Shown in pieces: positions 28,637 to 31,600 of a stretch of DNA of 64,000 nt (position 1 is its first letter; every line of letters begins with the position of its first letter). This DNA comes from Callorhinchus milii (lineage: Eukaryota), in NCBI RefSeq assembly GCF_018977255.1, contig NW_024704751.1:6696001-6760000 (forward strand), read 5' to 3'. The translations under genes were made by a program, and so were the position numbers. The notes under the pieces were generated by a model. It ran no database searches, had not been told where the DNA came from, and saw only the letters and a program-made list of their open reading frames with translations.

Positions 28637-31600
28637 ATGGGGAATAGTTGCTCGTGCACTCACACCACAGTGACTCAAATTCATTACCTGCAAGCTGATG
28701 GTTCACCACCGTCCGTAAGGAAACGTAACAGAAACAAAGGAAAGGTGGAGGATGCGGCAGAGAGAGAGCTGGAAGAGGAGGTGGAAAAGGCAGAAAAGTG
28801 GAATATGATCACCGGGGAGATCAAAGCCATTATAGACATCCGCCAGAGAGAGAGCAACATGGAGATGCCCATGAAGCAAGGGGACGAAACACTGAGAACT
28901 GACGACAGTGAAGTCATTGAGTCGGTAAATTAATCATTTTTATGTTATAATATTGTTATAGTATAAACATTTATGTAGCGCCTTTCACGCCTGGAGGATG
29001 TCCTGAGGCTCTTAAATTGAATTCAATCTTAACTTTGAAGCTGTTTTACTCTGTAAATTCTTAAAAGGCACTTGCAGAAAATCCCCCCTTCAAAATAAAG
29101 GCTATGTTTAAGAACTCTGAAACGCATGAATAGAGTAAATCTATATTTGTTCTGCAGTTTGCCACCGTTAAAGCTAAATGTGCAGCACAAGGCATGATTA
29201 AACAGTGTTCTCTAGAGATGTGGTTAGATGGGTCAGAGAGTCATCCCGGAAACATTAACAGTGACATTAACTTTTCCCCTTCGTTTTCTATTCTTATACT
29301 GTGCGTCATTTTGTTTGTCCTCCTCCCTGTTTTAATAAGAACTATCAGAAAATTATAGACGAGCTCCAGGCGGTGGGTGGACTTTGGGAAGATCCCGAAT
29401 TTCCCCCCGAACCCTCTTCACTCACGTACGAGGACGTGGCTCCAAAGGGAATCGAATGGATCCGTGCCTCGGTAAATAGCGATGCCTTTGTGGCTGTTTC
29501 CACGTACACAGGCTTGGCTTGGCTCCGCCGGTCGCGCTCTCGGATCAAAAGGTTGCGAGATCCTCTGAAACCTGGAATTCCCACGCAGCCTTTGGGTGCA
29601 ATCGTTGGCCAGGCCATCGGGAGAAATTCCCTTCTCTTTTTGAGAAACTGAGCGCTGTGTAAATGCAAGTTGTTATTGTTGTTTTAAGAACCGCGGAAAA
29701 ACGGGTTCCAAATTCAGGCTGAAATTGGAGACGTTTCCACAATTCTGCGGCAATCGTCGATCGTAGAATCAGAGAAGGAAGTCTCTCCCCGTGTCCAAGC
29801 CAACAAACCCTCCCCCCCTTCCAACTCTCCCCACCCAATAAAATTGGCCACTCGCACTCCATGGCTGGTTGTGGACGTCACGTTGCTCAAATTGGCTGTT
29901 TCCATTTGCCAACACAACACACACAGTCAAACAACAACAACAACAACAACAAGATTCCATTTATTGAGCTCCTTTCACGTCGGGAGGACGTCCCACATGA
30001 CAGTAAATGTTGTGAAGCGTTTTGAGGCACCTCGATGACATGATAGAGCGCAGTATCAAACCAAATGCAAGGAAATATTATGCGTTATGATTGTATGATT
30101 CCATCACATAAAGCCCTGTATTTCTTCACCACCAGGAACTGCATGAAAAGGCTTTCTTTTTAACAGACGGAGTGAGCAAGAGCGACATTATACAAGGGGA
30201 GCTGGGAGACTGTTGGTTCTGGGCCTCAGTTGTCACAATAGCTCACTCCAGGAGGTTGATGGAGCGAGTCATTCCTTCAGGTGAGACAACCACTTTAAAT
30301 TTCAGTTAGTAAAATAAAGAATTCCCACTCTCACCAAATTCCTGTTGCAGAGGGCTCACTCTGTTCCCAGCTTGCTCTGGTGGCCTCTCTGCTCTAGCTT
30401 TTAAACTCGGATTTCCATTTTTAGGGTCAGTTTTCCCGACAACAATCCAAACTTTTTGTTTAACCTTGTAAGAGAGATTTGCAGGAGCTAATAGATCAGA
30501 AATCTATTGCAAAAGATAATCTCTTTTCAGCTTTATCTCACCGATGAGCCAAATTAGCCAAATTCCTCAATGCTCCGAAACGCTACATAAATTAGAATAA
30601 ATTTAGACCCGGGTGACATTTCCCCCTCACTCCCCCAGCCCCCCCACTCCCCCCCAATGATATCCAGTGACAACAACAACAAACTACATTTGGAGAGTGC
30701 CTTTCATGTCAAGAGGACGTCCCAAGGTGCTGGACAGTAAGGGAGCTAGGGGTTGGGATCAGGGAGGGTGGAGGGCAGGGAGGGTGGGGGTCAGGGGGCG
30801 ACCGTAGGTGAAGAGGGGGATTTTGAGATGGGCCTCGAAGGAGGTGAAGGGACAATAGGACAAAAAGGTGGGGGCAGAGAGGCTGAAGGTCCGAGCACCG
30901 ATAGTAGGGCAGGCAGGGTGGGGGACATGGAGCAGGCCAGAGCTGGCTGACGGGAGGGAGTGGACTAGTCTGTATGGAGTTAGCAGGCCACAGAGGTAGG
31001 GAGGAGCAAGGCCGTGGAGGGCTATGAAGGCAAAATCTGATAAGAGTCATCTTATCTGCCGAGGATGGCATTCTGGGACGAGGAACGTGCTAAGCCTTGT
31101 TGGCCTGGAGCCAAGAGAGTAACAAAAAGACCATTATCCTGTTTCACTGGCAGTTTACACTTAATGAAATATTAATGCATTTAATTCAGTTTGCAAAGTG
31201 ACAAACTGATTACCTCTACAAATGCTGCTCAAGTAAGGGGCGAAGCAAACCAGGATCAGAAGGCCGGCGCTAATTGAGAATTTTTTCGTCAACGAGAGTT
31301 TTAAATTTCACTGAGCAAAGAAAGCGCTCTGTAGCAGGTGTGGAGCAGATTAATATCCATGTACAATGCCTTCGTCCTGCAGAAACACAGGAAAATACTC
31401 GTCATTGGAACAGGAAAGAGACTCTTGGCACCAGAGAGATTTATGACGCAGAAGAAGGCCATTCGGTCCATCGAGTCTGGGTTGGCTCTTTTAAATAGCC
31501 ATCTTTTCAATCCTGGCCGAGGCTGTGACAAGCCGGCTGAATTTGCTGGGAGGAGATCTTAGCCCGGAATCCTATCTATCTGCTCTGTGTCAGACTGGCT

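Follow-up and report, generated by a model that had tools for sequence, protein, structure and literature searches.

A candidate N-terminal lipid anchor marks a PEF-less bilaterian calpain clade with a member in Callorhinchus milii

The 64,000-nucleotide stretch of Callorhinchus milii DNA analysed here (the window; assembly GCF_018977255.1, contig NW_024704751.1, positions 6,696,001 to 6,760,000 of the forward strand) carries a calpain gene whose product is probably N-myristoylated at Gly2, then reversibly S-acylated at Cys5/Cys7, to act as a Ca2+-activated membrane protease that has neither a PEF nor a C2 domain. Dual acylation and membrane targeting of this calpain are strongly supported predictions from sequence comparison, and the candidate lipid anchor is broader than one gene, marking a bilaterian calpain clade. 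It has long been asked how calpains get to membranes and how they are switched on by the calcium levels of the cell. In the mechanism that we propose, the initiator methionine would be removed and N-myristoyltransferase would modify Gly2, after which a DHHC enzyme would add reversible S-acyl chains at Cys5/Cys7 and trap the protein at the membrane. Held by its acyl anchor, the enzyme would sit on the cytosolic membrane face, and a flexible, mostly disordered linker, about 90 residues long and containing one amphipathic helix, would keep the protease close to membrane-bound substrates. Activation would come from a local rise in Ca2+ acting on two core sites, perhaps aided by a PDxDxDGxxD loop, and a small subunit would not be needed without a PEF domain.

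The gene model comprises 12 exons and 585 stop-free codons; the eleven exons after exon 1 span 29340-36560, and 11 of 11 introns are bounded by GT and AG. Its features, in window coordinates, are as follows.

28637..28924, plus strand: coding exon 1, aa 1-96, the N-terminal extension (single copy; aligns with orthologue N-termini)
28637..28657, plus strand: M-G-N-S-C-S-C, a signal predicted to direct N-myristoylation (G2, S6) and S-palmitoylation (C5, C7) (sequence, conservation)
28658..28684, plus strand: xHTTVTQIH, aa 8-16, conserved in jawed fishes, role unexplained (9 of 12 sequences)
28718..28744, plus strand: basic patch, aa 28-36, not conserved (K/R counts)
28748..28798, plus strand: E/K-rich segment, aa 38-54, a predicted helix of poorly conserved sequence (alignment, AlphaFold2)
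28799..28843, plus strand: conserved amphipathic segment, aa 55-69, from W55 (12 of 12 jawed-fish sequences)
29340..29471, plus strand: exon 2, start of CysPc (Peptidase_C2, E 0.0045, below the curated cut-off)
30136..30280, plus strand: exon 3, catalytic Cys166 at 30211-30213 (Pfam, triad alignment)
31810..31993, plus strand: exon 4, CysPc (Pfam; 100% identical to P0001)
32421..32601, plus strand: exon 5, CysPc (Pfam)
33206..33283, plus strand: exon 6, catalytic His327 at 33254-33256 (gene model, triad)
33871..33965, plus strand: exon 7, catalytic Asn351 at 33913-33915 (Pfam, triad)
34843..34920, plus strand: exon 8, CysPc (gene model)
35032..35117, plus strand: exon 9, end of CysPc and PDxDxDGxxD (aa 414-423, from 35090), a candidate Ca2+ loop (clade signature)
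35390..35512, plus strand: exon 10, CBSW (Calpain_III; Pfam)
35969..36102, plus strand: exon 11, CBSW (gene model)
36327..36560, plus strand: exon 12, end of CBSW and stop, followed by no PEF or C2 (gene model, tail search)
36848..36853, plus strand: AATAAA, candidate polyadenylation signal (sequence)

Translation of 28637-28924 gives 96 residues starting MGNSCSC, with RKRNRNKGK at aa 28-36 and EDAAERELEEEVEKAEK at aa 38-54. These elements, together with the phase-0 donor TCG|GTAAAT at the 3' end of exon 1, had been described in a first-pass annotation of this DNA and read back exactly; its proposal that exon 1 fits the first protease exon also holds, as the acceptor ahead of 29340 is in phase and the 12-exon frame is open. 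The exon 1-2 join is collinear in alignment with contiguous orthologue proteins, and evidence for this splice comes only from the orthologues, which run across the 28924-29340 join. Contigs from four of 12 runs, guessed to be RNA, were compared with exons 1-7; bins at exons 1-6 were empty or nearly so, which neither supports nor opposes splicing. The cover and the joints listed in these contigs over exons 1-7 derive from repeats, and a further 189 joints lie outside those listed. An abundant SINE-like repeat with many copies in introns of the window (27500-27740, 32030-32350, 37130-37470) dominates the contigs aligned to the locus. Exon 1 is single copy in the Callorhinchus milii genome; of 11 calpain matches there, the next after the window gene is at no more than 54% identity.

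Upstream of the calpain lies PRPF8 (exons 19900-27250, minus strand, head to head with the calpain) and downstream a TLC-domain gene (39435-39839, minus strand). PRPF8 and TLCD2 are consecutive in the table of a review of human 17p13.3 (PMC5876250), and the calpain is located within the PRPF8-TLCD2 interval. A GC-rich island (about 26400-27300, GC up to 0.69) is found on the PRPF8 side of the calpain, and in the segment 28602-28636, just 5' of the start codon, a sequence ending CACAG at 28617 could serve as a splice acceptor. From this candidate acceptor we suspect that a non-coding exon precedes exon 1 and may originate in the PRPF8 island.

The product is classed as a calpain (peptidase C2) by its predicted CysPc domain with a Cys-His-Asn triad, and the triad C166/H327/N351 is intact. 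When eight exon translations were submitted to Pfam, Peptidase_C2 (PF00648) was matched on exons 2, 3, 4, 5 and 7, the exon 2 match being below the cut-off, and Calpain_III on two; there is one CBSW domain only, and the stop codon follows it directly. A NUDIX match on exon 1 (E 0.064, below cut-off) was dismissed as chance. Searching the window with the tails of eight classical and three TRA-like calpains revealed no PEF or C2 remnant of the calpain gene; the two matches obtained were an overlap with CBSW and a weak one inside PRPF8. Among solved structures, calpain-1 and calpain-2 are the best matches, and G152, D157, E238, E360, D367, D390 and E392 align with calpain-1 positions. We take the acidic residues among them to be ligands of the two core Ca2+ sites.

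The searches place the gene in a wide group of short-tailed relatives. With exon 4 as query, 12 proteins were recovered among 14 candidates, headed by a 100% identical Callorhinchus milii fragment and followed by sequences from sharks, skates, rays, coelacanth, sturgeon, paddlefish and lungfish, mostly labelled 'calpain-A-like'; a search with the skate orthologue also recovered a bichir entry. Among the 120 of 348 matches listed for that orthologue, the top non-vertebrate ones are PEF-less calpains of hemichordates, amphioxus, a tunicate, molluscs, annelids, crustaceans and ticks, which rank ahead of classical calpains. A profile built from 28 PEF-less calpains placed 26 clade members, each with at least 644 bits, at the top of the 120 of 232 matches listed; calpains of insects and CAPN9 of teleosts and lizards come next, with scores of about 560-615 bits. 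No teleost or tetrapod clade member appears among these 120 of 232 matches, in a search that scores word-sharing candidates only, and absence from teleosts and tetrapods is suggested. The same profile was run against 1.84 billion representatives, of which the best 150 were used; clade members named there include starfish, crinoid, a second amphioxus gene, spider, cockroach, cricket, locust, ostracod, Seison and Biomphalaria. Carriers of the gene include Aplysia, amphioxus, crayfish, skate and sturgeon. A FastTree of 169 rows, from which 10 rows with short matches (the bichir entry among them) had been dropped, places the window gene in a group of 47 with support 93. Four long-branched rows of this group (P0274, P0198, P0293 and P0242) are calpains of Palpitomonas, Diphylleia and Fabomonas plus one unnamed row; P0274 starts MGCxxS. 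They may reflect either an older origin of the clade or long-branch attraction, and the clade counts given below (n = 43) leave out these three named protists and the unnamed row.

N-myristoyltransferase prefers Gly2 with Ser or Thr at position 6. The window protein combines Gly2 and Ser6 with Cys within the first 10 residues. From the residue frequencies of the calpains retrieved, MGxxx[ST] is expected by chance at about 0.8% of N-termini, and at about 6e-5 with at least two Cys; conservation is the stronger test. An MG start is found in 30/43 clade rows versus 12/122 other calpains, MGxxx[ST] in 29/43 versus 2/122, and MGxxx[ST] with a Cys at positions 3-10 in 23/43 versus 0/122, counts that kinship inflates since the rows are related and not independent trials. 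With representatives from outside the profile only, the figures are 10/17 versus 0/116. Other short-tailed calpains have the motif in 0/25 cases. The tail after CBSW is 30 aa or shorter in 41/43 clade rows. Of the 43 clade rows, 13 have no MG, and roughly half of those 13 are plainly cut short. The 30 rows that do start with MG have S/T at position 6 in 29 cases and C at position 3 in 16, while at positions 7-12 the top residue reaches at most 6/30; constraint is confined to positions 2-6, in N-terminal extensions of 38 to 389 aa. A lipidation signal on a free linker would be expected to look like this, with five residues preserved and the remainder of the extension changing.

In jawed fishes, the window was compared with 11 database sequences reaching exon 1, near-duplicate isoforms and later-starting entries being excluded. 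Conservation of the MG motif in orthologues, the check that the first-pass annotation had proposed, is found: MG[NS]SCSCxHTTVTQIH opens 9/12 sequences from 7/10 genera (Callorhinchus, Chiloscyllium, Amblyraja, Leucoraja, three Acipenser, Polyodon and Polypterus). The Heptranchias, Narcine and Hemitrygon entries (3/12) start without MG, either because their gene models are cut short or because the motif was truly lost. Two elements had gone unseen in the first-pass annotation, the conserved HTTVTQIH and the amphipathic segment aa 55-69; the latter is present in 12/12 jawed-fish sequences with a hydrophobic moment of 0.33-0.45, and W55, A64, D67 and R71 are invariant in the orthologue alignment. 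The linker is otherwise variable, its net charge ranging from -7 to +3 across the 12 sequences. AlphaFold2 predicts a single helix at aa 34-73 of exon 1 that spans the charged stretch (block pLDDT 54-83), and gives aa 1-90 of the skate orthologue a pLDDT below 50. The amphipathic segment may touch the membrane as a further contact or act as a latch that inhibits the enzyme itself.

This segment also enters a reading in which the protein is myristoylated at Gly2 only and mostly soluble, shifting to membranes by a myristoyl switch that would involve the W55 helix, CBSW and Ca2+. Such a switch would find its second anchor or latch in the amphipathic segment, and it accords with the 6/29 MGxxx[ST] members that have no early Cys and with the move of the Cys from position 3 in most invertebrates to positions 5 and 7 in fishes. 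We nevertheless consider it unlikely, as an early Cys accompanies the motif in the other 23/29 and both C5 and C7 are retained in all nine MG-starting fish sequences.

Dual acylation of the window protein presupposes translation from M1, and the start codon deserves attention. An in-frame TGA (28634-28636) abuts the ATG, so that M1 is not an internal methionine of the exon 1 frame. Its context is weak, with T at -3 versus A at -3 of M57, and leaky scanning is possible for that reason. In Callorhinchus milii, the enzyme could then be made mostly from a downstream start (M57, M75-M79) or from transcripts that skip exon 1, as a soluble PEF-less calpain with the motif at most in a minor isoform. 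Several entries carry no motif (P0002, P0003/P0128, P0005, P0006, P0126), skate isoform X2 entries (459 aa) begin inside exon 2, and the Callorhinchus milii entry P0001 begins at exon 2. P0001 is, however, a 153-aa fragment without a start Met, and the first 16 residues are near-invariant among chimaera, bamboo shark, skates, sturgeons, paddlefish and bichir, unlike the linker that follows. Near-invariance beside a variable linker calls for translation from M1, and we regard a predominantly downstream start or skipping of exon 1 as quite improbable. The first-pass annotation went too far in calling the predicted anchor constitutive, given the reversibility of S-acylation, the weak M1 context and the motif-less entries.

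The same annotation held that lipid anchoring substitutes for PEF/C2-mediated targeting. In function this may be so. As history it fails: the clade of the window gene is old and PEF-less, and retains the C2-like CBSW domain. In a quick tree of 56 rows, the clade received an SH-aLRT of 100 with classical calpains only for comparison. A careful tree of 31 rows sets 13 PEF-less rows plus the CAPN10-like paralogue apart from classical and TRA calpains (100/94), and the 13 rows without the CAPN10-like row at 82/83. The vertebrate branch is long (0.93), the CAPN10-like branch longer (1.76) and its placement unsure; the names of the unnamed vertebrate rows in this tree are our assumption. Forcing the four fish rows with 13 classical rows, a group named after the tree was seen, is rejected (p-AU 0.00039). 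Descent from a classical CAPN9/CalpA-type calpain, with a lipid anchor acquired in exchange for a lost PEF domain, would fit the 'calpain-A-like' database names and the best structural matches to calpain-1 and -2, yet this origin is largely refuted by the 100/94 branch, by that rejected grouping and by a linker motif that invertebrate PEF-less members share, and we hold it to be very improbable.

The linker motif in question, PDxDxDGxxD, occupies aa 414-423 between the protease core and CBSW (35090-35117 plus 35390-35391, the last codon being split by an intron). PDx[DN]xDGxx[DE] at this place is found in 27/43 clade rows versus 0/122 other calpains; the linkers of calpain-1 and CAPN9 differ from it, and the paddlefish version is degenerate. 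AlphaFold2 models the loop of the skate orthologue between two strands (block pLDDT 82-89). An xDxDxDGxxD calcium loop has been described for PepX, and the window motif fits the Dx[DN]xDG pattern (PMC10536834; PMC3123361). We conjecture that PDxDxDGxxD is a Ca2+-binding loop.

The basic patch that the first-pass annotation had singled out turns out to be specific to this gene, with six K/R in nine residues versus two to four in the other 11 jawed-fish sequences. The P. falciparum calpain traffics to the nucleolus, and a patch serving here as a nuclear or nucleolar signal, with acylation toggling the enzyme between membrane and nucleus as there, is scarcely credible. The density of K/R and the pairing of acylation sites with basic residues in the P. 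falciparum enzyme (PMC4409355) speak for it, but the patch is absent from those 11 fish sequences.

Returning to the dually acylated membrane calpain, we tentatively entertain a wider view, which has less in its favour than the mechanism itself. Bilaterians may possess a third mode of calpain control, in which an N-terminal lipid anchor and a Dx[DN]xDG loop between core and CBSW would do the targeting and sensing jobs of PEF/small subunit and C2. The window gene would then be an unnamed vertebrate example, kin to CAPN10, possibly retained in cartilaginous fishes, sturgeons, bichirs, coelacanth and lungfish, with teleosts and tetrapods having lost it from the PRPF8-TLCD2 interval. The vertebrate range of the calpain resembles that of ampullary electroreception. 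Gars, bowfin, teleosts and frogs have lost their ampullary organs (PMC5429088). A list of 490 paddlefish lateral-line-enriched genes, 112 of them uncharacterised or assigned to a family only, contains no calpain or capn entry, and PMC13069148 has no relevant mention of calpain. A role in electroreception was set aside, as the lateral-line list is without calpain and the clade occurs also in invertebrates. Two conserved motifs, the predicted acylation signal and the linker loop, offer a hypothesis testable by point mutants for this calpain family, whose vertebrate lineage has been hidden behind the automatic label 'calpain-A-like'. Macqueen and Wilcox (2014) surveyed classical calpains only, and 15 mammalian calpains plus CAPN17 are recognised there (PMC4043111); the window gene would add a lineage to this jawed-vertebrate repertoire.

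Among known systems, the closest is the bilaterian Truncated family proposed by Hastings et al. (2017) from molluscs, Limulus, sea urchin and amphioxus, with a weak tie to CAPN10 (PMC5650170). AplTRUNC1 has the same CysPc plus single C2L/CBSW as the window protein, and nothing after (PMC5650170). The Aplysia row P0031, along with amphioxus, echinoderm and arachnid proteins, groups with the window gene; by elimination on species, domain content and grouping, we infer that P0031 is probably AplTRUNC1 (XP_005105403.1). The window gene most likely belongs to this family. The portions of that paper's text available to us name no vertebrate member and mention neither myrist, palmit nor shark, and they leave Truncated calpains' activity, control and role as a question for the future (PMC5650170). 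In the literature searched, which holds few subscription journals, we found no report of acylation of Truncated calpains or of their vertebrate members, and priority is uncertain. A review of membrane-anchored calpains covers transmembrane types, and its accessible part is without acyl, palmitoyl or myrist (PMC10762896).

Two further PEF-less calpains occupy loci of their own in this genome. A CAPN10-like gene with tandem CBSW lies on contig C11 (about 9779300-9784300, minus strand; L015-L016), and a CAPN5-like gene with C2, which groups with TRA calpains, on contig C4 (80618900-80639700; L019-L021); we presume both names from domain content. The first four and the last exons of the CAPN5-like gene are on the minus strand and the middle ones (about 80619100-80628000) on the plus strand, which suggests an inversion or a misassembly. 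Separate loci, domain content and the tree rule out that the window gene is CAPN10 or CAPN5/6. CAPN10 is PEF-less like the window gene, and the 100/94 branch keeps a CAPN10-like row together with that gene, whereas CAPN10 has a tandem CBSW and the window protein one. Classical calpains (CAPN1/2/9, CalpA/B) align with the window protein at the triad, CBSW and acidic core residues; they carry a PEF domain and an anchor helix, in contrast to its predicted acylation signal, lack of PEF and different linker motif. In the PEF-less CAPN5/CAPN6 (TRA), S-acylation controls membrane association (bioRxiv 2022.01.25.477766), but first contact is made by a C-terminal C2 domain that the window protein does not have.

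Finally, acylated calpains are known from protists. T. brucei CAP5.5 carries both myristate and palmitate (PMC4181241). The P. falciparum calpain has palmitate on Cys3 and Cys22 (bioRxiv 2022.01.25.477766) and combines a myristoylation site, a palmitoylation site and basic residues, its dual acylation being reported or predicted (PMC4409355). S-acylation usually follows a nearby first anchor and is reversible, as described by a kinetic-trapping model (bioRxiv 2022.01.25.477766). Both enzymes place on the N-terminus of a calpain the dual acylation that is predicted for the window protein. CAP5.5 differs by retaining one of three catalytic residues and by a kinetoplastid-only N-terminal domain (PMC4181241), whereas the window protein has the full triad and belongs to an animal clade. 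In its best reading, the window calpain would function as CAPN5 and the protist calpains with dual acylation do, and it belongs to neither group.
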